From a virus: 38,267 nt of DNA. Where the stretch lies: positions 1-38,267 of the IMG/VR virus record IMGVR_UViG_3300025896_000012; one strand, written 5' to 3'. The stretch's first letter is position 1. Every line of letters begins with the position of its first letter. Shown here in pieces: positions 128 to 36,475 of this stretch. The notes beneath the pieces were generated by a model, which saw only the letters and a list, made by a program, of their open reading frames with translations, had not been told where the DNA came from and did not search any database. Position numbers and translations under genes: made by a program.

Positions 128-2551
128 ATGCAGACCTGGAACGGTACTAATTATGACACTATGCTCGGTAGTGCGACTATCACCGCAACAACCGCAGGTC
201 TGACATTAGCTGGTATTACTTCATCAGGTGTAACAGCTCCGAACTTAGTCAATAAGATTACAGGCGTATGGATATGTATATCAACACTCCCTGCCAACGG
301 TGGTAACATCACCGCTGAAATCATGGAGTCTGGTGTATCGAAGGCTACTGCTACCATCAACCTGGCCGATGCTCAGTTGGGTATGAACTACTTCCGCTTT
401 GCCACGCCGTATCAGTTCGCCACTCTCACAGCCTCGGCCTATACTTGCAGGCTCAAGAATACTGTCGGTTCGTCTGGTAATGTCCGTACCGCAGCTTCAG
501 GCTTATGGTTCCAATTTACTTATGACACCGCAGGGGCATTAGGGGCTTCAGATGACCTATGGATAGGGGGGTTTAATGATGCTGGTCTCACCGCCAAGAC
601 TTGCACTTTATCAGGCACAGCTAACACCTTCGGTTCAAAAGCTGCTACAAGTATCGGTTCGACCGCTCAGACTATGGGTGCAGCCCTTACAATCGGTTCA
701 GGTGGCACATTCAAACACGATACCGCAGCTAACTGTACAACCACTCTAAAAGGTAGTGTATGGGTAACAGCAGGAGGTGTCTTTGACATACGAGGTTCAG
801 CTACTAAGACTATTATTTCAACATTCATTATTGACTCAACAGCCAACGGCGACCAGGGTATATTCACTGGTGTAACGTCTTACGGTGGTCAGATACTTAC
901 TACGGGAGCAACTTGTGATGTTTACACAACCTACGCCTCTGGTCTAGGTACGGCAGCCAGTCCACTCATTACTCAAACAGCTTGGGATGCTCAGGTTGGA
1001 GACGAGATTGTACTTGGTGGTGCTACGGATTACTTAAAGAATGAGACTCGGTTTATCATAACCCGAAACTCTAGTACCTCATTCGTGCTGAGTAACACGG
1101 CTGGGGGTGCCGAAGCTGCACTAACCCAAACTCACGCAGTCGGTTCATACATGAATAACCTAACCCGAAACGTAGTAATAAAGGCTCTAACCAACACGAG
1201 AGGCTGGTGGATAAACAACTCCTCTAGCGTAAACTCATCTTTCGATTACACAAGAATGGAGTATAGTGACTCTAGCTCTGGTAAATCACTCACACTCACA
1301 CCATCTAGCCTCTCCACATTCGATGGGTTAGTTTTGTACCAAGCCTCAATTACTGGTCGTGGTTGTCTCTTGCTTAGACAGAACGATGCTACAGCCCAAA
1401 CTCACACAGGTATCACGCTATACAACATGGGAGGTTTAAACTATGTTGCTCAGTCAGGGATAAGCTTCTCTGGTTCAAGTAATAAGACCATGAACTACTG
1501 TTTCCAGTACAACGCCCCATCTAGTACGTTCTCGTGTGCCTTGTTCTCTTACGGTGCATCGTCAACTTCCAATGTGATGAATAACTGCCACTCTTACGGA
1601 GGCAATGCAGTAAACTCATCTGCTGGATATGTAATTGGTATCTTTGCCTCTAATGCAAATACATTCAATAACTGTACGGTAAACGGTGCCAGACAGAACG
1701 CAGTCTATCTTGCCACCGCTTCGGGTAACGTGTTCAACAACTGTAACTTTGGTACTATCGGTAGCAACGTAATTGACATGACCGCACTTACAGGTACACT
1801 TAACCAAAACTACTTTAACACCTGTACGTTCGGTTCATCTACACTTCACTCAAACTACCTTAACCAGCTCGATACCAGCATAGCTAAGTTTCAGAATATG
1901 GATGGTAACACCTCTAAACACCGCTGGTACACCAATAAGGGTTCTTGGTGGAGTGCTGGAGCTGGGCTAACAGATACAACTGTTCGTACTGCCTCGTCAT
2001 TATCTCTAGTAAGTAAACCAGAAAACGCTACGACTGGCTCTAGCTGGACATTTAAGATACCTGCCAATCCGACTTCTAACGTGGGTATATTCGGCTATGT
2101 ATACAGAAATGCTACTTTTTCAAGCGGTACATTAAAGGTAGAGTTATTCTTACCAGGTACTTTACTAACAGCCACACCAGATGATACTTACACGTTTGCG
2201 ACAACTACAGGTTCTTGGCTACCGTTCAACATCTCAGCATACTATTCAGGTACGGATTCTCGCTACGCTACAGTAAGAATCACAGGTGTAACTGCTACGG
2301 CAGGGGCATATTTCTTTGTAGACGACTTATATGATGCTGGAACAGGTAATAAGGTGGCTGGTTTTGACCTTTGGGAAGAGGGTCAACCATCGCAGATTAT
2401 GGTTGTAACCGACTTCAGTTCTGCTGTGCCTGTACTCGCTGCTGCTACTACGACAGCGGTATGGTCAGATACTACGACTTATGGGACTGGCACTAAAGGC
2501 AAAACCCTCAAAGACGCTAACGACAACGCAGAATTGGCATCGGTAACCTAG
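122..2551 (+). CDS. Tail spike / tail fibre protein with right-handed parallel beta-helix (pectate-lyase-like) core
   Basis: 809-aa S/T/G/A/N-rich ORF. Repeated units carry NNC signatures (NNCHSYGGNAV, FNNCTVNGARQNAVYL, GNVFNNCNFG) typical of PbH1 beta-helix depolymerases. GTG 122 overlaps the upstream stop (TAGTG); an in-frame ATG lies at 128. Confidence 0.7.
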   Translation: MAMQTWNGTNYDTMLGSATITATTAGLTLAGITSSGVTAPNLVNKITGVWICISTLPANGGNITAEIMESGVSKATATINLADAQLGMNYFRFATPYQFATLTASAYTCRLKNTVGSSGNVRTAASGLWFQFTYDTAGALGASDDLWIGGFNDAGLTAKTCTLSGTANTFGSKAATSIGSTAQTMGAALTIGSGGTFKHDTAANCTTTLKGSVWVTAGGVFDIRGSATKTIISTFIIDSTANGDQGIFTGVTSYGGQILTTGATCDVYTTYASGLGTAASPLITQTAWDAQVGDEIVLGGATDYLKNETRFIITRNSSTSFVLSNTAGGAEAALTQTHAVGSYMNNLTRNVVIKALTNTRGWWINNSSSVNSSFDYTRMEYSDSSSGKSLTLTPSSLSTFDGLVLYQASITGRGCLLLRQNDATAQTHTGITLYNMGGLNYVAQSGISFSGSSNKTMNYCFQYNAPSSTFSCALFSYGASSTSNVMNNCHSYGGNAVNSSAGYVIGIFASNANTFNNCTVNGARQNAVYLATASGNVFNNCNFGTIGSNVIDMTALTGTLNQNYFNTCTFGSSTLHSNYLNQLDTSIAKFQNMDGNTSKHRWYTNKGSWWSAGAGLTDTTVRTASSLSLVSKPENATTGSSWTFKIPANPTSNVGIFGYVYRNATFSSGTLKVELFLPGTLLTATPDDTYTFATTTGSWLPFNISAYYSGTDSRYATVRITGVTATAGAYFFVDDLYDAGTGNKVAGFDLWEEGQPSQIMVVTDFSSAVPVLAAATTTAVWSDTTTYGTGTKGKTLKDANDNAELASVT

Positions 2552-2553
2552 CG

Positions 2554-2562
2554 TGTTATAAT
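2554..2562 (+). promoter_or_regulatory. Extended -10-like element TGtTATAAT
   Basis: gcgTGtTATAATgcgg lies directly after the tail spike stop, 26 nt upstream of ATG 2589. It belongs to the TG-n-TATAAT family listed in the findings. Confidence 0.3.
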
Positions 2563-2588
2563 GCGGTTATGATAATAAGAGGCAGCTT

Positions 2589-2726
2589 ATGAAAACTATT
2601 GAACCGCTAGATTGGGAAGTTATAAATGCTCAGCTAATGGGGAGACCATTAGAAGAAGCTACCCAGATATTTTGTAAACTTATCACTGATAAAGTGAATG
2701 AAGTGGTTGAGGCTTCTAATGACTAG
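2589..2726 (+). CDS. Small hypothetical protein (45 aa)
   Basis: Hand-translated as MKTIEPLDWEVINAQLMGRPLEEATQIFCKLITDKVNEVVEASND. AAGAGG lies 6 nt upstream. Its stop overlaps ATG 2719 (ATGACTAG). Below the size cut-off of the ORF track. Confidence 0.35.
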   Translation: MKTIEPLDWEVINAQLMGRPLEEATQIFCKLITDKVNEVVEASND

Positions 2727-3063
2727 TCAAGAAATCTTAGAAAAAGCTATACAGAAGGCTATTGATAACGGGTGGGACTGGAAAGATTTTCAATGTCGAG
2801 GGTATTTCCCCAATTATCTTGAAGGTGATGCGGTAGTAAAACATATTGCCGAGACTATGCTTGATATGAGATTGTATAGCCTTATATTCAGCCACGACTT
2901 CGCCAAAGCATTATGGGGAGAATCTACAGATTACACGAAGGTTGTGACGAACTACCCCGATACACCGCCTTTGGTCACACTATGGCAGAATGGGTACAAG
3001 TACCACCTACAACAAATGGTAATATCAGATAACCGACTAGAGTATTTAGGCCAGCACATATGA
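2698..3063 (+). CDS. Hypothetical protein (121 aa; alternative start ATG 2719)
   Basis: Long ORF with an ATGA overlap into the next gene at 3060. No motif recognised. Confidence 0.6.
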   Translation: MKWLRLLMTSQEILEKAIQKAIDNGWDWKDFQCRGYFPNYLEGDAVVKHIAETMLDMRLYSLIFSHDFAKALWGESTDYTKVVTNYPDTPPLVTLWQNGYKYHLQQMVISDNRLEYLGQHI

Positions 3064-4148
3064 AAATTCTAGCAATTCATAGTTCTCTGTCTGAGGATCA
3101 AAACAAACGATCAGCAGTCGATATGTGGAGAATATACCGACCACTTCAAGAACTAGCCAAGCACACAAATTGGCAAATAGATCACCAGCCAACCTTTATT
3201 AAAGGTATCGAGAAATACAAGAACGCCAATGAGTTTACCGAAGAAGAACTAGAAAAAGCTTTCAAGACTATTTGTGAGTACGATATAGTCTTTTCTTCAT
3301 ATCACGCAGATCCTACAGCTTTTAGTATGCTTAAAGTGGCTAGAGATCGTGCCGGTACACAGTTTATTATGGATGTCGATGATGACATGTTCTCAGTCAA
3401 TCCCGATAATCCGTTTTGGGTGAAGATGACAGATGAGAAGTGTTATTGGATGCAATGTATGATTCGAGATAACGATTGGATCTCTACAACTACAGAAGAT
3501 CTTGCTAGAGTATTTAGGTTAAGACGCAAGCGCCCAGTAAATACTACGTTTGTGAACCCTAACTTCATAACAGACGAGTACAAAAGAAAGCCTTTTAAGA
3601 ATAAAGACGTAGTTATTGGTTACTTTGGCGGATCGTCACACTACCAAGATCTACATGAAACAGGCGTAGCAGAAGCTATTGAAAAGTTAATGCACGAGAA
3701 TAAGAACCTACGCTTTAAAGCCGTTGGTATGCCACTTGACAAGTATGTGCCTAGAAAACGCTATGAGTTTGTACAGGGTAAACGTGGTGACGGCTGGATA
3801 AAAGAACTTCACCCTAACCTTGCTATGGATATTGCTATAGCTCCACTTCACGATAATATATTCAATCATGGCAAGTCTAACATTAAATGGCAAGAAGCTA
3901 CACGAGCTGGGGCTGCACTCGTAGCATCAAATATAGGCCCGTACAGCCATCTAAAACGTGGAGTAGCTAAACTAGTCGATAATAATACTGAAAGCTGGTA
4001 CAAGGCCTTAAAAGAGCTTGTAGATAGCAAAGAATCACGTGACCAAATGCTAGAAATCGCTACTAAGGAGCTTGAGAACTACCGCTTAGAGAATAACTGG
4101 ACTTACTACAAAAATATGTTTGAAAAAGTAATGGAGGCAAAGAAATGA
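3060..4148 (+). CDS. Putative glycosyltransferase (acidic DxD-type motif, GT-B-like C-terminal half)
   Basis: 362 aa. Contains IMDVDDDMF, and the C-terminal KSNIKWQEATRAGAALVASNIGPY resembles the sugar-nucleotide-binding end of GT1-type enzymes. Clustered with two GT-A-like genes and a sugar dehydrogenase. Confidence 0.5.
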   Translation: MKILAIHSSLSEDQNKRSAVDMWRIYRPLQELAKHTNWQIDHQPTFIKGIEKYKNANEFTEEELEKAFKTICEYDIVFSSYHADPTAFSMLKVARDRAGTQFIMDVDDDMFSVNPDNPFWVKMTDEKCYWMQCMIRDNDWISTTTEDLARVFRLRRKRPVNTTFVNPNFITDEYKRKPFKNKDVVIGYFGGSSHYQDLHETGVAEAIEKLMHENKNLRFKAVGMPLDKYVPRKRYEFVQGKRGDGWIKELHPNLAMDIAIAPLHDNIFNHGKSNIKWQEATRAGAALVASNIGPYSHLKRGVAKLVDNNTESWYKALKELVDSKESRDQMLEIATKELENYRLENNWTYYKNMFEKVMEAKK

Positions 4149-4285
4149 AAAGATTGCTGACGTTGTGGTTTATCAGGAGCATTAGCAAGAGTATGAGTAA
4201 GTATACAAACACATCAGGTGATAGGATCTTACATATGCTTTATATAGAATTTGAAGATCTACATTTTAGAGGAGGGAAGAAATGA
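4145..4285 (+). CDS. Small hypothetical protein (46 aa), translationally coupled on both sides
   Basis: ATGA overlap with the stop of 3060..4148, and ATGA overlap with the start of 4282..4485. Hand-translated as MKRLLTLWFIRSISKSMSKYTNTSGDRILHMLYIEFEDLHFRGGKK. Confidence 0.3.
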   Translation: MKRLLTLWFIRSISKSMSKYTNTSGDRILHMLYIEFEDLHFRGGKK

Positions 4286-4485
4286 CATTACCTTGGGGAT
4301 CAGGTGTTTACTTTGACAAGAATAAACAGCTTTACCATGCTAGAATCTACCGTAAAGGGCGCAACTTTCATATTGGTAGATACCCCACTATAGAAGAAGC
4401 CATTAGCGAACGTAATAAATACAAGGAGATGTTAGATGCAAACAATCAAACCAGCAAGCAATCAGCTATTCTGCAAACCAGATGA
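4282..4485 (+). CDS. AP2-domain DNA-binding protein (stand-alone AP2 of the kind attached to phage homing endonucleases)
   Basis: GVYFDKNKQLYHARIYRKGRNFHIGRYPTIEEAISERNKY fits the AP2 pattern GV..........A.I...G....LG.F.T.EEA. GGAGGG lies upstream. Confidence 0.55.
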   Translation: MTLPWGSGVYFDKNKQLYHARIYRKGRNFHIGRYPTIEEAISERNKYKEMLDANNQTSKQSAILQTR

Positions 4486-4711
4486 AGTAGAAACTATGAC
4501 AAAATCAGGCTTTTTTATAGAGGCTAAATCTGCAGAAAAGCCCCAAACAGCAAATGTCATAAATGTTGGCTCTGAAGTAAAGGGATTCGCACAAGAAGAT
4601 CGCATAGTCTACAAGCCATACGCTACAGTTGACGTTAAACTCGATGGTGTTAAGTATTTTCTGATTGACCAGTCAGATGTGCTAGGGACTGTGGTAGATG
4701 TCAAAGCCTAA
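4436..4711 (+). CDS. groES: GroES-like co-chaperonin (Cpn10)
   Basis: 91 aa. IKPASNQLFCKPDEVETMTKSGFFIEAKSAEKPQTANVINVG aligns by eye with E. coli GroES [42 protein letters not shown]. The C-terminal VKLDGVKYFLIDQSDVLGTV matches the ...ILAIV end. AAGGAG lies 6 nt upstream. Confidence 0.75.
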   Translation: MQTIKPASNQLFCKPDEVETMTKSGFFIEAKSAEKPQTANVINVGSEVKGFAQEDRIVYKPYATVDVKLDGVKYFLIDQSDVLGTVVDVKA

Positions 4712-5468
4712 GATTGGCTTGGGCATATGTTCTTATAACAGACCAGATTATTTAGTGCAATCTATCAAGGGTGTTGAAACTAATCTTTTAGACGTTGTTG
4801 ATTCAGTCTGGATATACAACGATGGTAGTGATAAATATCACAAGTCTGCTTATCAACAGCTTTACAATAAATTACCAAAGGCTATTAGATACCGGCACGC
4901 TCTTAAGAACAAGGGTGTAGCATACGCAAAGAATTGGCTACTTAGAAAGCTTATTAGCGAGGGCTGTGATTATATTTTTTTGCTAGAAGAAGATATAATA
5001 ATTGATTCACCAAAAGCCGTAACTGAATATGTTAGACTTTCAGAACTATCGGGCATAGAACATATGATGTTTGCCCACCACGGACAAGCTAATGTCGGAA
5101 TGCTATACGCTAGTAGTAAGGGAATTGATTTGTATACTGCTGCAGTTGGGGCGTGGTGTATGTACACTAAAAACGCTATTGAAGTATGTGGGTACTTTGA
5201 TGAGAATATGTTTAATGCTATGGAGCATATTGAGCATACCTATCGCATACAAAAAGCAGGATTATGCACACCTTATCCACTGTACCCCGATCTTACGAAG
5301 TCACGAGAATACATGCACGAGATACCAGGCTCTATAGATAATAGCTCGATTAGACCACGGCAAGATTGGCAAGTAAATATACTTAAAGCTCTGTTATACT
5401 GGCAGAAAAAGGATAAAGACTTTCCGTTACAAAGAATGATTGATAAGATTATGGAACAAAATGTATAA
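4698..5468 (+). CDS. Family-2-like (GT-A fold) glycosyltransferase
   Basis: N-terminal GLGICSYNRPDYLVQSI matches the GT2 pattern xxxPxYNxxxxL. The acidic motif FLLEEDIII sits in the DxD position. 256 aa. Confidence 0.65.
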   Translation: MSKPKIGLGICSYNRPDYLVQSIKGVETNLLDVVDSVWIYNDGSDKYHKSAYQQLYNKLPKAIRYRHALKNKGVAYAKNWLLRKLISEGCDYIFLLEEDIIIDSPKAVTEYVRLSELSGIEHMMFAHHGQANVGMLYASSKGIDLYTAAVGAWCMYTKNAIEVCGYFDENMFNAMEHIEHTYRIQKAGLCTPYPLYPDLTKSREYMHEIPGSIDNSSIRPRQDWQVNILKALLYWQKKDKDFPLQRMIDKIMEQNV

Positions 5469-6138
5469 AATAGCTTTACTACTGCCTACCCGTAAACGCC
5501 CTGATAATTTAGTACGGTTTTATGAATCTGTTTCAGAAACCGCAGATGACCCAGAAAGCATACAGATTGTAACTTATATTGACAATGATGATAGCTCTTA
5601 TGATGATATTGAACTCCAAGACTTAATTAAAGTACGAGGTGATAGAGTTGTGCTGTCAGAGATGTGGAACAAATGTTATGAAAAATCAACTGCGCCAATA
5701 CTAGGTCATATGGGTGACGATATCATATTCAGAACTAAAGGCTGGGACACAATACTACTTAATACTTTTAAAGAATATAAAGATAATATTGTTTTCTTGT
5801 ATGGTGATGATGGCGGCCCTCATGTAGACTTTGGTACGCATGGATTTATACACAAAGACTGGGTTAAAGCCACTGGCTACTTTGTACCGCCTTACTTCTC
5901 ATCTGATTATAATGATACTTGGTTAAATGACGTAGCAAAGCTTGTTAATAGACACCGAAGAATAGATATTTACACCGAGCATATGCACCCCGCTTTCAAC
6001 AAAGCACCGCTTGACATTACCCACCAAGAACGCCTTACACGCCACCGTAACGATAAAGTAGATGAATTGTACCGATCTCCTAAAATGTACGAGGAGAGAG
6101 AAGATAACGCACGTAAACTTAGAAAGGTTATGAAATGA
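5461..6138 (+). CDS. GT-A-like glycosyltransferase-related protein
   Basis: KIALLLPTRKRPDNLVRFYESV, TYIDNDD and YGDDGG motifs. ATG 5461 overlaps the upstream stop (ATGTATAA); the track start at 5440 is in frame but less likely. Confidence 0.5.
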   Translation: MYKIALLLPTRKRPDNLVRFYESVSETADDPESIQIVTYIDNDDSSYDDIELQDLIKVRGDRVVLSEMWNKCYEKSTAPILGHMGDDIIFRTKGWDTILLNTFKEYKDNIVFLYGDDGGPHVDFGTHGFIHKDWVKATGYFVPPYFSSDYNDTWLNDVAKLVNRHRRIDIYTEHMHPAFNKAPLDITHQERLTRHRNDKVDELYRSPKMYEEREDNARKLRKVMK

Positions 6139-7358
6139 ACATAGGTGTACTAGGCGCTGGTAAGTTAGGATTGCCGGTAGCTTTAGCAATGGAGAGTAAA
6201 GGGCATACAGTACAAGTGTATGATGTCAATCCAGCCGTTGAAGGCTATTTTAATGGCGAACCATACCCACACCAAGAGGAGTATGTTGCAGATATGCTTC
6301 ACGACAGTCGAATCACTGTTGCTAAAAATGTGGGAGAGTTAGTTCTTGGTAAAGATATAGTATTCTGTGCTATTCAAACTCCCCACGAGCCAAGATTTGA
6401 AGGTACTACTCGACTGCCTGAAGATCGTGCAGATTTTGATTACACTTGGCTCAAAGACGCAGTAAGAGACGTAGTGGAAGCTTCAGACGGCAATACAACG
6501 CTTGCTGTTATAAGCACCTGTTTACCTGGCACATACGAGCGTGAAATAAAGCCTCTGTTATCAGATGATATTGATTATGTGTATAACCCACTTTATATAG
6601 CTATGGGAACAGTTATAGATGATTACTTGAACCCTGAATTTGTGCTTGTTGGTCAAGAAAGCCCTGAAGCGGCAGCTAAGCTACAAGAGTTTTACGGTAC
6701 TTTGCATGAAGCCCCTCATGTTGTGACAGATATCACAACGGCGGAAGGTATTAAAGTATCATACAATACATGGATCACCGCAAAAACAGTCCTTGCAAAC
6801 GCATGGGGCGAGATGTGTGAACGCATGGGAATGAATTTTGACGATATGTACAAAGCATGGACTCTTGCAAACCAACGCCTTATTAGCGCAAGGTATATGA
6901 AAGCTGGTAAATCTGACGGGGGTGGCTGCCATCCTAGAGATAATATAGCTATGTCTTGGCTCGCTGATGAGGCTGGTATGAGCCATAACATATGGGAAGA
7001 TTTAATGACAGCTAGAGAAGATTATGAAGATTGGCACGCTCGATTAGCTATCAAAGCAAGTAAAGAAAACGAGCTACCATTAGTTTTACTAGGTAAAAGC
7101 TTTAAACCAGAAACCAATATAGAGACTGGCTCGCCAGCTATACTTATGGCAAATATAATACGCAATGACTACGGTTACCCGATGCAACATCTTGATGAGC
7201 TAGACGGTATACCACAAAAAGCAGTCTACTTTATAGCCACACAGCACGAGAGGTATAAAGATATTCGTTTCCCCGTAGGTTCTATGGTGTATGATCCATT
7301 TAGATATATAGAAGATCAAGAGGGTGTTACAATTATTAGAATTGGTGGTAGAATATAA
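6135..7358 (+). CDS. Nucleotide-sugar dehydrogenase (UDP-glucose/GDP-mannose 6-dehydrogenase family)
   Basis: N-terminal Rossmann motif MNIGVLGAGKLGLPVALAM. Catalytic-Cys motif GGGCHPRD (family consensus GGxCxxKD). 407 aa. ATGA overlap with the upstream gene. Confidence 0.75.
   Translation: MNIGVLGAGKLGLPVALAMESKGHTVQVYDVNPAVEGYFNGEPYPHQEEYVADMLHDSRITVAKNVGELVLGKDIVFCAIQTPHEPRFEGTTRLPEDRADFDYTWLKDAVRDVVEASDGNTTLAVISTCLPGTYEREIKPLLSDDIDYVYNPLYIAMGTVIDDYLNPEFVLVGQESPEAAAKLQEFYGTLHEAPHVVTDITTAEGIKVSYNTWITAKTVLANAWGEMCERMGMNFDDMYKAWTLANQRLISARYMKAGKSDGGGCHPRDNIAMSWLADEAGMSHNIWEDLMTAREDYEDWHARLAIKASKENELPLVLLGKSFKPETNIETGSPAILMANIIRNDYGYPMQHLDELDGIPQKAVYFIATQHERYKDIRFPVGSMVYDPFRYIEDQEGVTIIRIGGRI
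7346..7354 (+). promoter_or_regulatory. Extended -10-like element TGgTAGAAT followed by the conserved AGGCGGG leader motif
   Basis: tTGgTAGAATataaacatacAGGCGGGCGAGGcactcgATG. Same layout as at 11391 and 32361. Confidence 0.35.
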
Positions 7359-7382
7359 ACATACAGGCGGGCGAGGCACTCG

Positions 7383-8024
7383 ATGGCTTACCAACTTAGC
7401 ACAATCGTATCTAAAGTTCAGCGCAGGATTAGAGATACTGGTTATTCTTCTTCTGAAATTACTGACTACATAAATGACACACAAAATGATGTGTTCAATG
7501 AGTACAAACTGCCGTTCATGCAAGCCACGCAAAACTACGCTACAGTAGCTAACGTGTCTGACTTAACTGATGGTTCTGGGCTGCCCACAAATTATGTTCA
7601 AGCTCTTGAAGTAACTAACTCAAGCAATAAAACACTTACATATTTTGATGTACGTGAACTTGATAATCTCAACACTAATAGCGAGACTAACCCCAGCGGT
7701 TGGTATTTCTTTGCAGATACAATCTATCTTTACCCTACCCCAACAAGCGTACAAACTTTGACTTTAAAGTATTATAAGAGACCTACAGAACTTACTGCAG
7801 ATGCTAGTGTGCCTGAAATACCAGCTGAATTTGAAGAACTACTTGTAGTAGGCGCTGCATATCGAGTAATGCAAGTTAAAGATAACTACGATCAAGCAGG
7901 AGTGCTACAGGCTAAATACGATGAAATTTTGCAGAAACTTGTTATGAAGTATAGTCGCCCACAAGTAGGTAAGCCATCTAATATGAGGATAAACCGCCGT
8001 GCCTTGGGCAAAACGAGTTACTAG
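7383..8024 (+). CDS. Virion structural protein, possibly head-tail adaptor
   Basis: 213-aa ORF opening the tail/neck block. Assigned by position only; no decisive motif. Confidence 0.45.
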   Translation: MAYQLSTIVSKVQRRIRDTGYSSSEITDYINDTQNDVFNEYKLPFMQATQNYATVANVSDLTDGSGLPTNYVQALEVTNSSNKTLTYFDVRELDNLNTNSETNPSGWYFFADTIYLYPTPTSVQTLTLKYYKRPTELTADASVPEIPAEFEELLVVGAAYRVMQVKDNYDQAGVLQAKYDEILQKLVMKYSRPQVGKPSNMRINRRALGKTSY

Positions 8025-10257: not shown

Positions 10258-10971
10258 ATGTCTTTACTTACAAACGCCAATAATGTAGCTTTCAGCTCTA
10301 GATTTGGGGTAGATAAAGTTATTTTTAGACCCCCGCCTGGATCTATATCTGTGCCACAAGCAGCCTCATCTGTAGATGTAGTCGTTGTAACGATCCCTCA
10401 TAACTTAGGGTATACACCATTATGTTTAGGGCAGTTCTCAGATAATAATTTCTCTACATCTTATGAAGTCGGTAACCCACCTTATTTTTACAATGCGTTA
10501 TTTGCAGGGTATGGCCCACAGTTTAACTGTTCAATTGAAGCTGATAATACAAATGTTTATGTGACATTTATCAACTGGGACACTACAAGGACACTCTACT
10601 ATCGGTTAGTTGGACTGATACCATCTGACATAACTAGCTCACCAAAGATGGTCAATGCTGATAGAAATAACTTTTTATTTAATGCTAACGATAACTACAT
10701 GAAACTTTATTTAGAAGATAAACTTGATGTAGTAACAAGCGGTACGGGGATTGATACATACACAATTGTCCATGGGTTAGGCTACAGACCAAGTATAAAA
10801 CTTTGGTCGGTATGGGGGGGCGTATCTCGTATCGCTGGAACAGAGGGACAACTAGGGGCAAGCGGTATATTTACGCTTACATCTGTAGATTCACAAAATA
10901 TGTATATATATGTTGATACATTCTCACCAGAAACAATATCATATTATTATAGGGTGTATTTGGATAACTAA
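10258..10971 (+). CDS. Hypothetical virion-module protein (237 aa)
   Basis: Tightly packed ORF in the structural operon; beta-rich composition. Confidence 0.55.
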   Translation: MSLLTNANNVAFSSRFGVDKVIFRPPPGSISVPQAASSVDVVVVTIPHNLGYTPLCLGQFSDNNFSTSYEVGNPPYFYNALFAGYGPQFNCSIEADNTNVYVTFINWDTTRTLYYRLVGLIPSDITSSPKMVNADRNNFLFNANDNYMKLYLEDKLDVVTSGTGIDTYTIVHGLGYRPSIKLWSVWGGVSRIAGTEGQLGASGIFTLTSVDSQNMYIYVDTFSPETISYYYRVYLDN

Positions 10972-12148: not shown

Positions 12149-13953
12149 GTCCAGAACAACTAGCATTACTTGAACAAGGCTATCAACAACAGCAATCTAC
12201 TAGGCAAGCTTCTACTCCAGCCCCTAAAAAGAAGCGTAATTTTTGGGTAGATCAAATCTCAACCGCTACAGGAACAATCGGCGGTATAGCTGGTGGTATC
12301 TTAGGTGCAGCTGGCGGAGCTGGTATTGGCGCAGTACCAGGCGCAGCAATTGGTGGTGCAGCTGGTGGTGGTATCGGTGAAGCAATTGAAAATCTTATTG
12401 ATCCTCAAGGCGGTAACTGGGGCAACGTAGCAAAAGAAGCTGCAGTAAGTGGTTTGTTTGCTGGTGGCCCTCTAAATCTAGGTAAAGCAGGACTTAGAGT
12501 AGGCGCTAAAGTTCTTGGTAGAGAAGCTGCAGAGGCTGGAGCTAAAGCTGCTACAAGAACTGTTGCTGAACGAACTTCGCAAAGTCTACTAGGCAAAGCT
12601 TGGGGAATCCGAACTGGAGCTAAAGCTGGTGCAGAAGAACTGACCCCTCAAGCTGCATCTAAGTTACAAAGCTTTGTGCTTAAAGAAGTTGGCGTGCCTA
12701 AAACAGCATCAGCAGATGTTGTAGCTGAACGACTGGTAAACTTTAAAGATCTAGCTGGTAAAAACATTGACGATATTATTAAGGTATCTGACCGAGCAAT
12801 AACCCCCCAAGAAGCTGCTAAATTATCTCAAGGATTTACTACTAAGATAAGCAAAATAGCTGGACTTGACCCAACGAACCCTACAACTCAAACCCTACTT
12901 AATCAAGCAGGAGAAGCTAAAACATTAGGTGATCTTATAGGGTTCAGACGCAATCTTGATGAAGCAATAAACTTTTCACGTAAATCAGCAACACCTGATC
13001 CTGTAACTGAACGAGTAGCACGAGCAATTAGAGGCGAAATTGACGCAACTACATCTAAACTTATCCCCGGACTTAAAAACGCTAACACACAGTACTCACG
13101 TGCAGCACAGGCGCTTGACTTTGTACTCCCAGCAGCCAAATCTCCTCAAGGTATTAAACTACCTGGTTTCTTAGGAAGTGTTGGCGGTGAGGCTGCACAA
13201 TCTGGTAGAGCTGCAGCAGGAAGAATAGCTGGCGCTGTGCCAACATTAGGCAAAACAGCTGGCAAAGTAGCGCAATCAGGGTTTACTGCTAAAAACGCAT
13301 TAGGAGTAGGCGTAAGACAGGCTGGCCGACAATTGTTCAATGGCCAAGCACCTGAAGAACAGATGACACCAGAACAAAGTCTTGAAGAAGCTTTAATGGC
13401 GCAAGGTGATGTAGCTGCACCGCAAGATCAACCACCTGAAATTTACCCACTGGAAAATCTGCGAGCAGATATACAGCGTGATCCTAAAAACGCTCAAGAG
13501 TACCTTAAATACTACGCTTCATTACAAGAAGTCTTTGGCCCTGTAGAACAAAAACCAATGGGCGCAGAAGCTCAAAAACGGGCGCTTACATCACAATCTG
13601 GACTTCGTTCTATCCAAACATTAGAAGATACACTAGCTCGTGATCCTGGGGCTTTCCAACGCCAAGCACTACCGAACCCACTTGGTATTACAGGTAGACT
13701 TACAGGCACTACAGATGTTCGAGCCGCAACAGATAACGTAGTAGATGTACTTGGTCGTCTACGTTCAGGTGCAGCTATTACTGATGCTGAAGCTAAACGA
13801 TTTGCCCGCTTACTACCACAGCCAGGGGATAATCCACAATCTGCTGCCAGAAAAATAGCTAATGTACGAGCTGAACTTGAAAGCTTTATGACACCTGTTT
13901 CTACAGGTGGATTAGAAGATATGTTAATGCAATACCAAGGAGGGGCATACTAA
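12145..13953 (+). CDS. Gly/Ala-rich internal virion (ejection or tape-measure-like) protein
   Basis: 602 aa. The N-terminal glycine-zipper stretch is GTIGGIAGGILGAAGGAGIGAVPGAAIGGAAGGGIGEA, followed by a long A/K/Q-rich helical sequence. ATGA overlap with the upstream gene. Confidence 0.5.
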   Translation: MSPEQLALLEQGYQQQQSTRQASTPAPKKKRNFWVDQISTATGTIGGIAGGILGAAGGAGIGAVPGAAIGGAAGGGIGEAIENLIDPQGGNWGNVAKEAAVSGLFAGGPLNLGKAGLRVGAKVLGREAAEAGAKAATRTVAERTSQSLLGKAWGIRTGAKAGAEELTPQAASKLQSFVLKEVGVPKTASADVVAERLVNFKDLAGKNIDDIIKVSDRAITPQEAAKLSQGFTTKISKIAGLDPTNPTTQTLLNQAGEAKTLGDLIGFRRNLDEAINFSRKSATPDPVTERVARAIRGEIDATTSKLIPGLKNANTQYSRAAQALDFVLPAAKSPQGIKLPGFLGSVGGEAAQSGRAAAGRIAGAVPTLGKTAGKVAQSGFTAKNALGVGVRQAGRQLFNGQAPEEQMTPEQSLEEALMAQGDVAAPQDQPPEIYPLENLRADIQRDPKNAQEYLKYYASLQEVFGPVEQKPMGAEAQKRALTSQSGLRSIQTLEDTLARDPGAFQRQALPNPLGITGRLTGTTDVRAATDNVVDVLGRLRSGAAITDAEAKRFARLLPQPGDNPQSAARKIANVRAELESFMTPVSTGGLEDMLMQYQGGAY

Positions 13954-14357
13954 TGTACACTTGTAAAAAAGGTCATTCCGGACAACCCTACATCACAAAC
14001 CGTGGTGAAAACCAATGTAGGGCCTGTAGATCAGAGTCAGTATGCAGATGGCAAACTAGAAACAAAGAAAAGTTATCTGAAATTAGACGCTTCGGAGGAA
14101 ATAGAGAAAATGCAATAATCAGAGACGGCGAAAAATGTGTCAAATGCAATATGTCAAGGGAAGCCCATAGATTGAAATACGGTAGAGATATCACGGTAGA
14201 CCATATTGATGGTAATGGCAGAAAAATGCTTGCTAAAGACCAAAATAATTCTATGGAAAACTTACAAACACTTTGTTTACCTTGCCACGGGTCTAAAGAT
14301 GTTGCTAGGCGCAAAGTACATAGTAATAAGTGGCTGAAACTTAAGGAGGTTTTCTAA
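13953..14357 (+). CDS. HNH endonuclease
   Basis: DHIDGNGRK...NSMENLQTLCLPCHGSKD matches the H-N-H pattern with a CxxC pair; an N-terminal CRAC...C cluster is also present. TAATG overlaps on both sides. Confidence 0.75.
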   Translation: MYTCKKGHSGQPYITNRGENQCRACRSESVCRWQTRNKEKLSEIRRFGGNRENAIIRDGEKCVKCNMSREAHRLKYGRDITVDHIDGNGRKMLAKDQNNSMENLQTLCLPCHGSKDVARRKVHSNKWLKLKEVF

Positions 14358-15351: not shown

Positions 15352-15621
15352 ATGCCAGATTCAGAAGTGCAAGACATCAAAAGAACACTCAGGAGCATAC
15401 AGACAGAGCTTAAAGAGAACAGCAACCTCACACGTCAAACATTTGATGCTGTAAGTGACAGAGTTAGTAAGCTAGAAGTAGCCGAAGCCAAAAGGCAAGG
15501 GAGAGAAAGCGTGTCAAAGCCAGAACAAGTCAATTGGACAAAGATAATTCTCGCAATTATAGGGGTGGCAAGTGCAGCAATATCCCTTGCACTACTACTA
15601 GCACAGAGGCTACTGACATGA
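15352..15621 (+). CDS. Membrane protein with C-terminal transmembrane helix (89 aa)
   Basis: Coiled-coil N-terminus, then WTKIILAIIGVASAAISLALLLA. ATGA overlap with the next gene. Lies next to the lysis genes. Confidence 0.55.
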   Translation: MPDSEVQDIKRTLRSIQTELKENSNLTRQTFDAVSDRVSKLEVAEAKRQGRESVSKPEQVNWTKIILAIIGVASAAISLALLLAQRLLT

Positions 15622-16208
15622 TTCACCATAAAGTAAAGCTCTGGTCATTGAGAAACCGTAATAATATTCTCACTATAGTTATATCTACGTCACTTTTAAC
15701 AGTTCTCATACTCCAAGGTATTTTACTTTCAGCTATCTATGCACAAGCTCGTTCTAATCAGGAAATACTTAGAGGCTTATCTTGCATACTACTTATTTAT
15801 CCACAGGATAGAACAGAAGAAAATGTTACTGCTTGTGTAAAAAGTAACAAGAATGAATCTCATGACTTCTTCTTTACCGCCCCTGACAAATCATTGGAGA
15901 AAAAGCTAGAAGAAGCTAAATCTGATGTCATCATCGCTACCCTAAAGGGAGAAAAAGGTGACAAAGGGGATTCTGGCAAGAATGGCACAGATGGCAAAGA
16001 CGGTACTAACTCGACTTCAACTAAAGAAACAATCGTAAAAGAAGTACCGCTTAAAGGTGAACAAGGCGAAGCTGGAGCTGCTGGTAGAGAAACAGAATTT
16101 AGATATAACGAAACTAAACAGCGCATAGAATGGCGATACATAGGAGATAGTGGCTGGCAAATATTAGTCAAGAAGTGCACCCTCCTTGCTGACTGTGTTG
16201 CACCATAA
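15618..16208 (+). CDS. Membrane-anchored collagen-like repeat protein
   Basis: ATG 15618 overlaps the upstream stop (ATGA). TM segment ILTIVISTSLLTVLILQGILLSAIY. G-X-Y runs GEKGDKGDSGKNGTDGKDGTN and GEQGEAGAAGRE. The track start at 15534 lies inside the upstream gene. Confidence 0.55.
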   Translation: MIHHKVKLWSLRNRNNILTIVISTSLLTVLILQGILLSAIYAQARSNQEILRGLSCILLIYPQDRTEENVTACVKSNKNESHDFFFTAPDKSLEKKLEEAKSDVIIATLKGEKGDKGDSGKNGTDGKDGTNSTSTKETIVKEVPLKGEQGEAGAAGRETEFRYNETKQRIEWRYIGDSGWQILVKKCTLLADCVAP

Positions 16209-16222
16209 GGTATAATGGTACT

Positions 16223-16969
16223 ATGACACTTGACCAATTCAGAAGTGAATCTTTAAAACAAATAACTGTAAGTAAATTCGGTGGTCAAAATAAATGGAAA
16301 GACGGCGGTTATCTAGGGGAGTGCGTGAGCCTTATTAACCAATATTGTTGGAGAGTATTAAACGTTCCTGCTGGCCCATGGGGTCACGCCTATGCTTGGG
16401 CCAACCGTTTCAACCCAAACAGAATGTATTTCACAGAAGTATCAACCGCACAGGCTGGTGATATCGGTGTTTCTGATGGCCCTACAAAAGACGGTCATAT
16501 TTGGATATACCTTGACCGAACAACTATACTAGAACAGAACGGTAAAAAGGCTCGCAGAGTAACCGTCAACCCAACTTATTTGAAAACCACAGCCATATTA
16601 AGACCTATAAAGAAGCAAGGAGGTGAAATGCCAATCACAAAAGAACAAGAAAACGCCTGTGCAGTCATGGCTACAGGTACATACCCCGGCAAGAACTACA
16701 ACTATAAGTTCACAGGCACAACAGACATAGATGGTATGCTCACGTTCTGGCTATCCCAAATGCCACGAATCACCAAAGAAATGGAGAAGCAAGAAGCTGA
16801 CGGCTCTACTGGCATACCCAACGTAATCGGCAGTGGGTATAACTCACAGTTTGTCGGCAAACCCGTCGTCAACACATACCCAGCTATGGCTAATTTTTGG
16901 AACGCACAACCAAAAGCCACTAGCGGTAGTTTTGAAGCAGTAAAAGAAACTTTATATAGAAAGAAGTAA
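16223..16969 (+). CDS. Endolysin, N-terminal CHAP peptidase plus duplicated C-terminal module
   Basis: The CHAP Cys context is GYLGECVSLINQYCW and the His context is KDGHIWIY. The C-terminal half has two similar units (GKNYNYKFTG..MLTFW and GSGYNSQFVG..MANFW). Confidence 0.7.
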   Translation: MTLDQFRSESLKQITVSKFGGQNKWKDGGYLGECVSLINQYCWRVLNVPAGPWGHAYAWANRFNPNRMYFTEVSTAQAGDIGVSDGPTKDGHIWIYLDRTTILEQNGKKARRVTVNPTYLKTTAILRPIKKQGGEMPITKEQENACAVMATGTYPGKNYNYKFTGTTDIDGMLTFWLSQMPRITKEMEKQEADGSTGIPNVIGSGYNSQFVGKPVVNTYPAMANFWNAQPKATSGSFEAVKETLYRKK

Positions 16970-24981: not shown

Positions 24982-25181
24982 TGTACGAACCAGCAACCGA
25001 ACAACAACGCCAACAAGAAGAAAACACCAAAATTCTTACAAGCCTCTACAAAGCAACCCTATTCGCAGTAATTGTATTTATTATCTGTTGGGTAGTTGGC
25101 CTAGCCGTATTCGTACAGACCATGAACCAAATAAAGTCTGACCGTAGTAAGTGTGTTAATTGGTGTGAAAGTAGATTATGA
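24981..25181 (+). CDS. Small membrane protein (66 aa)
   Basis: TM segment ATLFAVIVFIICWVVGLAVFV. TAATG overlap upstream and ATGA overlap downstream. Confidence 0.55.
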   Translation: MYEPATEQQRQQEENTKILTSLYKATLFAVIVFIICWVVGLAVFVQTMNQIKSDRSKCVNWCESRL

Positions 25182-35471: not shown

Positions 35472-36410
35472 ATGTCTGCACAGACTACTTCTAGCCTTAG
35501 TCAAGAAATGTCTACTTACTACGAAAAGGTTTTCCTTGCTCGTGCTGAGTACGAATATATCTTTAACCAGGGCGCACAAATGCGTACACAGCCAGCTAAC
35601 GAAGGTAAAAGCGTTGTATTTACTCGCCACACCCCACTAGCTACTGCTACGACTGCACTTACAGAGGGTGTAAACCCTGCTGAAGTCAACCTTACAGCTA
35701 CTAACGTAACAGCTACACTTGCTGAATACGGTAACACTGTTAAGATTTCACGATTCTTGGATCTCACATCAATTGACCGAAACAACAAAGAGAAAATCGA
35801 AGTTGTTGGTCAAAACATGGGTGAAACACTTGATGAAATCACTCGAAACGAATTGTTTACTGGTGCTACAACTCAGTTAGCTGGTGGTAAATCTGCCCTT
35901 ACTGACGTTGCTATCACTGACGTACTCAGCGTTGCTGAACTACGAAAAGCAGTTCGTACTCTTAAGCTAAACAAAGCACGTCGCTACCAAGACCGTGTTG
36001 CTCCTTGGATGGGTAAAGTTGGCCCTAACACCAGCTACGACCTAACCACTGATAGCACGTTCCTATCTGCCGACATTTACGATAACGGAGCTGAAAAGCT
36101 TTACAATGGTGAATTAGGTAAGATCTTAGGTGTTCGACTAATCGAAAGCCCTGCTCAATACGAGGCTGTTAATGCCGGTACTTCAAACGCCGACATCTTC
36201 TCAAACTTCGTACATGGTGCAGACGCATTTGGTTGTATCGACCTTATGGGCGACAAGCCACAACTGTACATCATCCCTCACACTAAGATTGACTCTGGTA
36301 ACCCAGCTGGTCGATTCTCACTAGTGTCATGGGCTGCTTCTTATGTCACTAAGACGCTTAACAGCTCTTGGTTAATTGACATCAAGACTGGTGCAACAGG
36401 CCAAACCTAA
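35472..36410 (+). CDS. Major capsid protein (HK97-fold type)
   Basis: 312 aa following the scaffold, with a TGGAGC SD-like element. The N-terminal pattern YYEKVFLARAEYEYIF...GKSVVFTRHTPL...LTEGVNP...ATLAEYGNTVKIS resembles capsid families. A hairpin follows the stop. Confidence 0.65.
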   Translation: MSAQTTSSLSQEMSTYYEKVFLARAEYEYIFNQGAQMRTQPANEGKSVVFTRHTPLATATTALTEGVNPAEVNLTATNVTATLAEYGNTVKISRFLDLTSIDRNNKEKIEVVGQNMGETLDEITRNELFTGATTQLAGGKSALTDVAITDVLSVAELRKAVRTLKLNKARRYQDRVAPWMGKVGPNTSYDLTTDSTFLSADIYDNGAEKLYNGELGKILGVRLIESPAQYEAVNAGTSNADIFSNFVHGADAFGCIDLMGDKPQLYIIPHTKIDSGNPAGRFSLVSWAASYVTKTLNSSWLIDIKTGATGQT

Positions 36411-36432: not shown

Positions 36433-36475
36433 GGGGGTAGGGCAACTTGCCCCCAACCAATTAAAAGGAGCAATT

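Follow-up and report, generated by a model that had tools for sequence, protein, structure and literature searches.

The window (the whole 38,267-nucleotide stretch analysed) is a complete circular assembly of ~38.14 kb with a 127-bp terminal overlap, and is the complete genome of a podovirus-like, uncultured phage of ~38.1 kb. Between the capsid gene block and an SU10-type head-to-tail adaptor gene, positions 3060-7358 hold an island encoding a GT4-like GT-B glycosyltransferase, a small AP2-like open reading frame (ORF), a GroES homologue, two GT-A/GT2 transferases and a divergent nucleotide-sugar 6-dehydrogenase, all on the + strand (the co-orientation is not special, because every gene in the genome lies on that strand). 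All of the ORFs that a preliminary description had assigned to the island were found where it had placed them, on the + strand, and its location of the island within the virion block was borne out. The features considered here are as follows.

122/128-2551, + strand: beta-helix protein of 807/809 aa (p809; AF2 pLDDT 87)
2534..2562, + strand: sigma-70-like promoter match (TTGGCA-17-TATAAT with TG, near consensus), in the gap after the beta-helix gene
2698..3063, + strand: 121-aa ORF (p121), ATGA-coupled to the GT-B gene
3060..4148, + strand: GT4-like GT-B glycosyltransferase, 362 aa (PHROG 7162, 3.8e-25)
4282..4485, + strand: AP2-like DNA-binding ORF, 67 aa (Pfam AP2, 5.7e-6; 27 bits, below the cut-off of 33.3)
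4436..4711, + strand: GroES (Cpn10) co-chaperonin homologue (Pfam Cpn10, 2e-14, above cut-off)
4698..5468, + strand: accessory GT-A/GT2 glycosyltransferase, 256 aa (Pfam PF00535; PHROG 2456, 1.4e-26)
5461..6138, + strand: GT225, a divergent GT-A/GT2 glycosyltransferase, 225 aa (PHROG 14945, 6.1e-36)
6135..7358, + strand: nucleotide-sugar 6-dehydrogenase of the UDP-glucose/GDP-mannose dehydrogenase family, 407 aa (PHROG 9148, 3.9e-69)
7383..8024, + strand: SU10-type head-to-tail adaptor (Pfam PF24175, 3.6e-27), the downstream boundary of the island
35472..36410, + strand: major capsid protein (PHROG 1357, 6.7e-60), which opens the block that holds the island

Pfam, PHROG, PDB and AF2/Foldseek comparisons confirmed three glycosyltransferases and one UDP-glucose/GDP-mannose-dehydrogenase-family enzyme, as initially proposed. 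The 362-aa enzyme matched Pfam Glyco_trans_1_4 below threshold (21.8 against 27 bits), and its AF2 model (pLDDT 91) has a GT-B fold nearest to GT4 enzymes, with MshA (Foldseek E 4.5e-16), PglA, BshA, GlgM, PimA, WbnH and the chlorovirus glycosyltransferase 3oy2 among its structural neighbours. The 256-aa GT2 scored above the cut-off for Pfam Glycos_transf_2 (27.5 against 23.3 bits), has EED at residue 97 in the DXD position, and is 28% identical over 203 aa to the N-terminal domain of Myrna gp234 (E 1e-13). GT225 had no Pfam match of its own, although PF00535 matches are precomputed for many of its 763 homologues. In the dehydrogenase, both the N-terminal (UDPG_MGDP_dh_N, 4.5e-19) and central (3.9e-14) Pfam domains scored above cut-off, GAGKLG lies at residue 7, the cysteine of GGGCHPRD aligns with that of GGSCFPKD in the UDP-glucose dehydrogenase 3vtf, and PDB matches included 3vtf (2.5e-24), 1mfz (1.1e-21) and 4r16 (6.7e-18). 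Its score against NCBIfam TIGR03026 (153.8 bits) fell below the subfamily cut-off of 189.8, so that a uronic-acid donor, previously given as fact, is better treated as a prediction. The island proteins are all soluble, without a membrane segment in any of them; nor was a multi-pass membrane protein fit as a flippase or polymerase, or a priming phosphoglycosyl transferase, seen in the genome. Because membrane segments and flippase/polymerase candidates are lacking, the cassette cannot export a polymer by itself.

The remaining two ORFs, which had been counted into the sugar island, are not supported as sugar enzymes. The GroES homologue (also matched, below threshold, by NCBIfam GroES models) is likely a capsid-folding helper. 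The AP2 ORF aligned with the DNA-binding portions of PHROG families of phage HNH endonucleases (best 2.9e-9) and is probably what is left of an HNH-AP2 homing endonuclease, or a free-standing domain of one, outside the sugar pathway; it does not resemble the HNH gene that occupies the equivalent position in a relative (L038). Translational coupling by ATGA/TAATG overlaps, initially described for nearly all junctions, held as ATGA at p121/GT-B and GT225/dehydrogenase only: three further junctions overlap by 8, 14 and 50 nt (the last between the AP2 ORF and GroES), and a 133-nt gap separates the GT-B gene from the AP2 ORF. The island is packed tightly with the flanking virion genes, terminator-like sites are not in excess, and the upstream p121, without a family match in Pfam, PHROG or NCBIfam, has a 119-aa ORF in the matching position in L042. 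Composition is unremarkable: the low GC content claimed for the island is confined to the two GT2 genes (37.5-38.1%; island 39.5%, genome 41.5%) and equalled by a tail gene (10258-10971, 37.5%), such that the island has no compositional anomaly. The promoter match at 2534-2562 is a possible separate island promoter, with perhaps distinct timing, and serves only as a lead, as the region holds in total just as many promoter-like matches as shuffled sequence would be expected to give.

To place the island in a wider context, we compared it across related phages, which carry a sugar island at the same site, as the preliminary description had suggested checking. The GT-B gene has 322 homologues, many from contigs of ~36-40 kb, and is strictly conserved, with invariant donor-site-like residues. 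It was present in 10 of the 10 capsid-selected relatives whose sequence continues for 5.8 kb or more beyond the capsid gene on its downstream side, always between the capsid and adaptor genes, and its identity tracked that of the capsid protein (r = 0.93, n = 21) over capsid identities from 92% to 30%; even a podovirus at the lower end of this range (MW202801.1, capsid protein 30% identical) still carries it. The GT-B gene thus belongs to the core of a large phage clade that has no cultured member, is inherited vertically alongside the capsid gene, and behaves like part of the core morphogenesis set. GroES adjoins it in five relatives (L017, L022, L042, L046 and L055), and in minimal forms GT-B and GroES lie immediately before the adaptor (L055) or GT-B stands alone, without a further recognisable sugar enzyme (L048). 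Downstream of GT-B the genes concern sugar chemistry throughout, with sets that differ by lineage (NDP-sugar epimerases/dehydratases, an RGP-like protein, a sugar C-methyltransferase, a NodB-type deacetylase, a cytidylyltransferase and further GT2 enzymes). The set found in the window (GT-B, GT2, GT225 and dehydrogenase) recurs in lineages at 53% and 32% capsid identity, and GT225 and the dehydrogenase stay together on different backbones, unrelated ones included, with the GT225 homologue upstream (L001-L008, L057 and L072-76). The accessory sugar genes are thus exchanged horizontally, and the island has two layers: a clade-wide core GT-B, often followed by GroES, and a swappable add-on.

Together, these results describe a soluble, cytoplasmic glycan-building cassette in the head-to-neck morphogenesis block, and we tentatively favour its interpretation as a Corndog-like, non-homologous virion glycosylation system. 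The conservation of GT-B, including its minimal versions, indicates a conserved acceptor; phages as divergent as those of this clade probably meet different host surfaces, which makes a phage protein the simplest acceptor candidate. Under virion glycosylation, the dehydrogenase would convert an NDP-hexose to an NDP-hexuronic acid, the predicted donor; GT225, its fixed neighbour and a proposed uronosyl transferase, would transfer the hexuronic acid; GT-B would add the first sugar to a conserved, co-produced phage acceptor, such as the capsid or another virion protein; and the GT2 enzymes could then lengthen the glycan, with the order of action likewise presumed. Expression would be late, judging from gene position, and the outcome would be a lineage-variable glycan coat on the particle. 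The enzymes, their position in the virion block and the syntenic islands of relatives make virion glycosylation, as first proposed, a reasonable leading hypothesis; the target indicated for it was not supported (see below). Several observations run against virion glycosylation. Clade capsids have short, conserved C-termini and no Ser/Thr-rich tail of the kind expected from the Che8-type precedent; the glycosyltransferases are dissimilar to Che8 gp108-110 and Corndog gp35-38; the GT4 neighbours use small-molecule, soluble-glycan or lipid-linked acceptors, and none is a known protein glycosyltransferase; the near-consensus sigma-70 match could mean separate timing; and in pelagimyophages, genes homologous to those for GT225 and the dehydrogenase are found next to fibre genes, with a published interpretation as modifiers of the host O-chain.

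The main rival, possible if somewhat doubtful, is the host-surface modification that had been offered as the alternative: soluble glycosyltransferases at the inner membrane face would modify lipid-linked or cell-wall glycan intermediates, giving an altered cell surface (for example, one bearing uronic acid) that would block superinfection or keep progeny from sticking to debris. The GT4 neighbours PglA, PimA and WbnH, peripheral-membrane enzymes with lipid-linked acceptors, keep this alternative alive, as do the HTVC008M sugar cluster, with a GT225 homologue at 31% identity and a dehydrogenase homologue at 33%, the interpretation of such fibre-adjacent clusters as O-chain modifiers (PMC7029224; PMC12801897), the glycan-binding beta-helix protein adjoining the island in the window and in L072-76, and hypervariable accessory content, as host-specific chemistry would predict. 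However, a GT-B inherited vertically over the full range of capsid identities is unlike host-specific modules, the membrane and priming functions noted above were not found, and the location of the genes points to expression late in infection, not long before lysis. Among the ORFs scanned none was recognised as an integrase, which leaves no lysogenic state to make seroconversion worthwhile, and the marine-phage readings in the literature are hypotheses rather than experiments.

An improbable third explanation is that there is no dedicated target, the capsid-adaptor gap being a permissive site for sugar-metabolism morons that would alter the host's nucleotide-sugar pools or produce a soluble glycoside. 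The highly variable content after GT-B, the homing-endonuclease-type ORFs that mark an insertion hot spot (AP2 here, HNH in L038) and the small-molecule glycosyltransferases MshA and BshA among the nearest GT4 structures agree with such a site, but the inserts consistently build glycans through sensible pathways (a donor-modifying enzyme plus a transferase), the GT225-dehydrogenase linkage is kept across backbones, and GT-B with its donor-site-like residues is strictly conserved.

The preliminary description had pointed to the adjacent Ser/Thr-rich 809-aa 'tail spike' as the glycosylation target, which we consider quite unlikely. Foldseek matches of the p809 model (capsule depolymerases, phage tailspikes, GH110/GH87 and CBM-like domains) suggest a glycan-binding or depolymerase-like protein. 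It adjoins the island, p809 homologues adjoin the same enzyme set in L072-76/L008, and the quoted Ser/Thr runs are present; yet its Ser+Thr content (25.7%) is close to the 22-24% of the phage's other fibre-like proteins and carries little weight as evidence of glycosylation. Moreover, p809 and its 72-aa partner (p72) form a mobile cassette, conserved over its full length (~808 aa, 47-83% identity). The cassette occurs on at least five backbones, and in L065, L071, L078 and L079 no homologue of the window's island genes was present within ~9 kb of it. Most clade members have GT-B and no p809, and L057 has the same four enzymes (GT-B, GT2, GT225 and dehydrogenase) without it.

Finally, sugar hypermodification of DNA, in which the transferases would glycosylate modified bases against restriction with a uronic-acid donor from the dehydrogenase, is highly unlikely: a weak similarity of the 256-aa GT2 to TAGT that falls short of the threshold (1.2e-3; 19.2 against 27.5 bits), a dehydrogenase homologue (27% identity) in phage SP-15, where such use is suspected, and C5-cytosine-methylase-like proteins encoded at 25-28 kb are outweighed by the ~20 kb between those genes and the island, the lack of a dioxygenase or ThyS homologue among the ORFs scanned, the island's setting amid virion rather than replication genes and a GT-B that is GT4-like, not T4 beta-GT-like, whereas known pathways cluster glycosyltransferases with C5-MT and 5mYOX/TET or with a thymidylate-synthase homologue, and use GT-B enzymes similar to T4 beta-GT (preprint 10.1101/2023.12.21.572611).

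Among known systems, those that glycosylate DNA (T4 alpha/beta-GT and the C5-MT/5mYOX-associated enzymes) share with the island a combination of GT-A and GT-B folds and a weak TAGT-like match. They differ in gene neighbourhood, in GT-B type and in having a 5hmC/5hmU-producing enzyme, which was not found among the ORFs scanned here. Seroconverting Gtr/O-antigen modules are likewise phage-encoded glycosyltransferases, but those are membrane proteins that temperate phages make in the prophage state to change the surface glycan, whereas the island proteins of the window phage are all soluble and no integrase was recognised. Chloroviruses, eukaryotic giant viruses, also encode glycosyltransferases and nucleotide-sugar enzymes, including a UDP-glucose dehydrogenase, and their own enzymes glycosylate the capsid protein; the GT-B likeness to 3oy2 adds to this parallel, although in chloroviruses the dehydrogenase supplies a hyaluronan synthase, embedded in the membrane, for decoration of the host surface, and such a synthase is absent here. 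In pelagimyophages and cyanomyophages (HTVC008M and S-SCSM2R), homologues of GT225 and the dehydrogenase also share one cluster of variable content that adjoins host-recognition genes, with host O-chain modification only hypothesised (PMC7029224, PMC12801897); these are large T4-like myoviruses without a capsid-linked core GT-B, unlike the window phage.

The parallel behind the favoured reading is with mycobacteriophages, whose virions are glycosylated by their own glycosyltransferases, with glycans shown on capsid and tail proteins, according to PMC12363180 and PMC12619734, which cite Freeman et al. 2023; the island is proposed to have a like outcome. Like Corndog gp35-38 and Che8 gp108-110, the island combines several soluble phage glycosyltransferases with a modifying enzyme and, as in Corndog (a methyltransferase and three glycosyltransferases directly upstream of the capsid gene), lies within the virion operon near the capsid gene. 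Neither Che8 gp108-110 nor Corndog gp35-38 showed detectable similarity to the island's transferases in sequence, only the 256-aa GT2 resembling one Myrna domain, and the capsid lacks the Ser/Thr-rich C-terminal tail of the Che8 type. In contrast to those cassettes, the present one belongs to a podovirus-like phage of ~41.5% GC and couples a nucleotide-sugar dehydrogenase and swappable toolkit to a clade-wide core GT-B, an arrangement of one core transferase with exchangeable partners that fits a strain-variable glycan on the virus particle.

The two ends of the window share an exact 127-base repeat (1-127 = 38141-38267), so the window represents a complete genome assembled as a circle of about 38,140 bp, with every sizeable gene on the + strand. 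In the gene order obtained from PHROG and Pfam scans, the sugar-gene island lies between the capsid and adaptor genes, that is, inside the virion block, as the preliminary description had placed it.

Gene order of the window (PHROG and Pfam scans)
starts 30524, + strand: small terminase
starts 31143, + strand: large terminase
starts 32401, + strand: portal
34667-35440, + strand: scaffold-like protein (p257)
35472-36410, + strand: major capsid protein
36986-38030, + strand: three small ORFs
38044-121, + strand: 72-aa ORF across the assembly junction (p72)
122/128-2551, + strand: 807/809-aa protein (p809)
3060-7358, + strand: island
7383-8024, + strand: SU10-type head-to-tail adaptor
downstream of the adaptor, + strand: more virion and fibre-like genes

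Elsewhere lie genes for a YqaJ exonuclease, a CHAP lysin, a Ser/Thr kinase, a TPR protein and short C5-methylase-like proteins. The ORFs scanned included no recognisable integrase, DNA polymerase, dioxygenase or thymidylate-synthase homologue, and the tRNA scan found none. The two C5-methylase-like ORFs (25178-25783 and 26585-27199) are paralogues of about 200 aa, 68% identical, with the cytosine methyltransferase motifs LYAGIGG and SSPPCP; both match only the first 77-79 of 324 Pfam model positions, and would be either minimal or truncated methylases. Between 27697 and 29938, a 369-aa protein in which a Ser/Thr protein-kinase domain is preceded by a methylase-like N-terminus (PHROG 757) is followed by the 379-aa TPR-repeat protein, whose gene falls where the GC content of the genome is lowest (about 33.5%, 28.5-30 kb). 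A 220-aa protein in the early/middle region (24319-24981) carries YdcK beta-solenoid repeats (6.4e-21) alongside a weak match of bactofilin type, and a lysis-type cluster after the fibre genes (15352-16969) combines the CHAP-domain lysin (16223-16969) with small ORFs in which a single hydrophobic segment occurs (in 15352-15621, and at the start of 15534-16208). No near-identical phage emerged when 2500-7500 was compared by megablast with 50,697 phage records; the closest cultured relative by capsid protein was Bacillus phage Page (32% identity). Metagenome bins yielded no host call: complete contigs of the same clade (L053-L058) sit in MAGs named Candidatus Peribacteria, Oleiharenicola, Candidatus Saccharibacteria and Aquaspirillum, assignments that are likely binning artefacts because they are mutually inconsistent.

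The island genes are packed among virion genes, terminator-like sites are not in excess, and promoter and terminator scans gave counts equal to chance. Linkage of nearly all island ORFs by ATGA/TAATG overlaps had been reported; two junctions do overlap as ATGA, but only those two, and there is also a 133-nt gap. Nor does low GC mark the island, as had been suggested: at 39.5% versus 41.5% for the genome it is not distinct, and a compositional island was rejected. As a lead only, a near-consensus sigma-70-type promoter match (TTGGCA, 17 nt, TATAAT, with TG upstream) occurs at 2534-2562, between the beta-helix gene (p809) and the ORFs leading into the island. A perfect 10-bp G+C-rich hairpin without a T-run (36433-36454, GGGGGTAGGG-CAAC-TTGCCCCC) lies 23 nt past the capsid stop codon and is possibly a transcript-stabilising or attenuating element, with a fold z-score of only -1.95.

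All ORFs that the preliminary description listed in the island are present, and their family calls held up in profile searches and a fold model; the set comprises one enzyme that oxidises a nucleotide sugar, three transferases spanning two folds, and a chaperonin cofactor. None of the island proteins has a hydrophobic segment, and all are thus predicted to be soluble; isoelectric points of the transferases, considered as a sign of membrane association, were not decisive. A PDB sequence search with the three transferases returned nothing significant, so fold prediction was needed. The first (362 aa, 3060-4148) matched a PHROG glycosyltransferase family (3.8e-25) and scored 21.8 bits against Pfam Glyco_trans_1_4, below the cut-off of 27. 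Its AlphaFold2 model (38 homologues, pLDDT 91, pTM 0.89) has a two-Rossmann GT-B fold nearest to GT4 enzymes, with Foldseek probability 1.0 to MshA, PglA, BshA, GlgM, HepE and PimA. Given the Pfam score and an incomplete EX7E motif (in KWQEATRAGAAL only the first Glu, the family-invariant E279, is present), the model points to an enzyme that is GT4-like by fold rather than a GT4 member. The gene context of its distant homologues on Desulfovibrionaceae chromosomes was uninformative. The second transferase (GT2; 256 aa, 4698-5468) passes the Pfam threshold for PF00535 (27.5 bits versus 23.3) and has EED at residue 97 as its DXD-type acidic motif. The third (GT225; 225 aa, 5461-6138) has no Pfam or NCBIfam match of its own; it matches a PHROG glycosyltransferase family (6.1e-36), many of its 763 homologues carry precomputed PF00535 (GT2) annotations, and a GDD motif is visible in its sequence.

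The 407-aa ORF (6135-7358) is assigned to the UDP-glucose/GDP-mannose dehydrogenase family by its predicted N-terminal Rossmann NAD-binding domain (PF03721, 4.5e-19, 69.2 bits versus a cut-off of 27; GxGxxG present as GAGKLG at residue 7) and central domain (PF00984, 3.9e-14, 53 bits versus 25.4). Its catalytic Cys motif, GGGCHPRD, aligns with GGSCFPKD of the UDP-glucose dehydrogenase 3vtf, and the upstream K...N (GIKVSYN) with KYASN; the C-terminal nucleotide-sugar-binding domain has no Pfam match, with PDB alignments extending to residue 340-379 of 407. The certainty with which a uronic-acid product had been proposed was not borne out: we assign no donor, because the protein falls below the NCBIfam subfamily cut-off (TIGR03026, 153.8 versus 189.8 bits) and UDP-Glc, GDP-Man and UDP-ManNAc dehydrogenases score similarly against it. 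A dehydrogenase match in 'Aphanizomenon phage Yong-DA' (L077, ON073792.1) was set aside, as the region (8966-33937) resembles a bacterial exopolysaccharide locus with Wzy, Wzc, polysaccharide export, GDP-mannose dehydrogenase and UDP-glucuronate decarboxylase genes; no phage structural genes occur in the 25 kb viewed, and the record looks like bacterial DNA deposited as phage.

The GroES assignment is solid at the level of sequence profiles (PF00166 Cpn10, 2e-14, 53.8 bits versus 21.1, residues 4-85), with NCBIfam GroES models matching below their cut-offs. The AP2 ORF scores below threshold, and what it resembles is the region of phage HNH endonucleases that binds DNA; it has no similarity to the HNH-type ORF found directly 3' of the GT-B gene in a relative (L038), and was rejected as a remnant of that gene. 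HNH-type homing-endonuclease ORFs and an orphan AP2 domain are dispersed through the structural genes of the clade (window 13953-14357, 22105-22485 and 4282-4485; L038 15555-16037; L048 16535-16999), which suggests active intron-less homing.

Comparison with relatives separated the GT-B gene from the genes that follow it. An IMG/VR search with the capsid protein gave 25 loci (49-92% identity), and a GT-B homologue was found in 10 of the 10 loci with at least 5.8 kb 3' of the capsid gene; in these capsid-selected loci it lay between the capsid and adaptor genes wherever the adaptor gene was in view. The GT-B family comprises 322 protein clusters, many of them from contigs 36-40 kb long. Even a Manatee Spring podovirus whose capsid protein is only 30% identical to that of the window shares the layout (capsid, radical-SAM enzyme, glycosyltransferase, dioxygenase, methyltransferase, NodB-like deacetylase, GT-B, tail genes). 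Across 21 genomes, GT-B identity follows capsid identity (r = 0.93), which argues for a vertically inherited core gene. Relatives thus carry a sugar island at the same position, with GT-B followed mostly by sugar genes that differ by lineage.

Genes after GT-B in loci of relatives (L handles)
L048: nothing recognisable
L055: GroES only, then adaptor
L022: GroES, GT2, epimerase, GT2
L042: GroES, epimerase, RGP-like, DUF3431, methyltransferase, deacetylase, GT2
L046: GroES, GT2, sugar C-methyltransferase
L047: epimerase, RGP-like, TOD1/MUCI70-like
L027: two epimerase/dehydratases
L017: GroES, cytidylyltransferase, GT2

The RGP proteins of L042 and L047 belong to PF03214, to which plant UDP-arabinopyranose mutases also belong; our impression is that RGP, TOD1/MUCI70-like and DUF3431 proteins, as in these two islands, are unusual in phages. 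CAP-domain proteins are encoded shortly downstream in L035 and L047. The add-on of the window (GT2, GT225 and dehydrogenase) recurs together with GT-B at capsid identities of 53% (L057) and 32% (L072-76, L008), and wherever the dehydrogenase is at least 46% identical, GT225 is encoded upstream of it, even on backbones showing no further similarity. Neither protein's identity tracks backbone divergence, pointing to horizontal exchange of the genes as a pair.

These patterns can be arranged into a pathway in which the core GT-B enzyme would act first, on a conserved acceptor; the dehydrogenase would supply an NDP-hexuronic acid, to be transferred by its fixed partner GT225; and accessory enzymes would then diversify the glycan. 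Virion glycosylation, proposed in the preliminary description, is a plausible outcome and retains its enzyme set and its site in the virion block, but not its tail-spike target, its GC argument or a certain uronic acid. The main argument for a phage-encoded acceptor is that GT-B is strictly conserved and capsid-linked in very divergent phages, whose hosts, and hence surfaces, probably differ; that the genome showed no multi-pass membrane protein capable of glycan export, and that no lysogeny genes were recognised, adds to it. As counterpoints, the window transferases lack homology to the mycobacteriophage enzymes; a Ser/Thr-rich C-terminal extension is absent from the capsid proteins, which removes a capsid C-terminal tail as the acceptor; the GT4 structural neighbours of the GT-B enzyme are not known protein glycosyltransferases; and late timing of the island is only proposed, a matter on which the promoter-like site may bear. 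In the families of p257 and p130 (37231-37623), compared across relatives L017-L057, the N-termini carry low-complexity stretches of 30-60 residues rich in Thr, Ser, Pro, Ala and Glu, variable in sequence and conserved in composition; as a lead only, these could possibly be O-glycan acceptors, or just disordered linkers.

The acceptor proposed earlier, the 809-aa 'tail spike', fared less well. Its model (pLDDT 87), a right-handed beta-helix with CBM-like sandwich domains, is similar to those of phage tailspikes, capsule depolymerases and GH110/GH87 enzymes, so the label is plausible by fold, but the protein is not a specific partner of the island, because it belongs to a mobile cassette that often lacks island genes, is absent from most of the clade and has an ordinary Ser+Thr content (25.7%, near that of other fibre-like proteins of the same phage). 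The p72-p809 cassette travels on at least five different phage backbones; no homologues of the window's island genes occur near it in L065, L071, L078 or L079, and most clade members have the GT-B gene without p809. Across these backbones p809 is conserved over its whole length (about 808 aa; 47-83% identity), and in L071 the cassette lies within an HK97-type head module, with portal/Mu-F genes on one side and prohead protease/capsid genes on the other. A receptor-binding protein would not usually be so uniform in length or be placed in a head module. A homologue of p136 (37620-38030) often precedes the cassette (L065, L071, L078, L079 and L080 compared).

Remodelling of the host envelope by the island enzymes is the serious alternative. 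In pelagimyophage HTVC008M, genes homologous to GT225 and the dehydrogenase are clustered, some GT4 neighbours of the GT-B enzyme use lipid-linked acceptors, and sugar clusters beside fibre genes have been hypothesised to be O-chain modifiers (PMC7029224). Such a role is hard to square with a GT-B gene that is core and vertically inherited, in a phage where no lysogeny genes were recognised. Glycosylation of DNA is unlikely: in described hypermodification systems, the glycosyltransferase gene is grouped either with C5-MT and 5mYOX/TET genes or with a ThyS homologue, and the GT-B enzyme resembles T4 beta-GT (preprint 10.1101/2023.12.21.572611), whereas here the ORFs scanned include no dioxygenase or ThyS homologue, the methylase-like genes lie about 20 kb from the island, and the GT-B enzyme matches GT4 enzymes instead. 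A target-less 'moron dump' of sugar genes does not explain the pathway-like gene pairs.

Extended to the whole clade, the virion glycosylation reading becomes more tentative. We consider it possible rather than probable that, in this widespread, uncultured, non-actinobacteriophage clade of ~38-kb podoviruses, capsid-linked glycosylation is part of the core genome, with GT-B priming a phage protein and a swapped toolkit writing lineage-specific glycans (here with uronic acid; elsewhere, to judge by the enzymes, with deoxy, methylated or deacetylated sugars), giving exchangeable particle 'serotypes'. To our knowledge, experiments have demonstrated virion glycosylation by a phage's own enzymes only for a small number of actinobacteriophages, whose particles it protects from antibodies. 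If the clade, with its hundreds of protein clusters (many from contigs of roughly 36-40 kb), does glycosylate its own particles, the trait would be an old core feature of a large environmental phage group and not a curiosity, and the swappable toolkit would be a new axis of phage diversity that could influence adsorption, stability and aggregation, as well as how hosts or grazers recognise the phage. Should the target be the host envelope, the island would clearly exemplify the rewriting of surface glycans by a lytic phage that uses nothing but soluble enzymes. Whichever target is true, the GT-B gene offers a simple marker for the clade and the island a defined enzyme set for heterologous tests.

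Among known systems, Gtr-type seroconversion relies on a membrane-embedded transferase or flippase in temperate phages, whereas the island proteins have no hydrophobic segment and no integrase was recognised among the ORFs scanned. Two reports (PMC12363180, PMC12619734) describe mycobacteriophage capsid and tail-tube proteins glycosylated by phage glycosyltransferases. In actinobacteriophage systems the glycans are on capsid or tail-tube C-termini of virions, whereas the capsid C-termini of the window's clade carry no Ser/Thr-rich extension. The window transferases have no significant homology to Che8 gp108-110 or Corndog gp35-38 (BLASTP, phmmer) and none to Myrna gp238; the sole match was that of a GT2 domain to Myrna gp234. 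In Corndog, gp35-38 (a methyltransferase and three glycosyltransferases) lie directly upstream of the capsid gene, and the island likewise lies among virion genes; Corndog is an experimentally backed precedent for the gene organisation. A phage sugar cassette beside virion genes is of a known kind; in the literature searched, we found no description of a clade-wide, capsid-linked core GT-B gene with a swappable sugar toolkit, and this combination appears to be the new feature.
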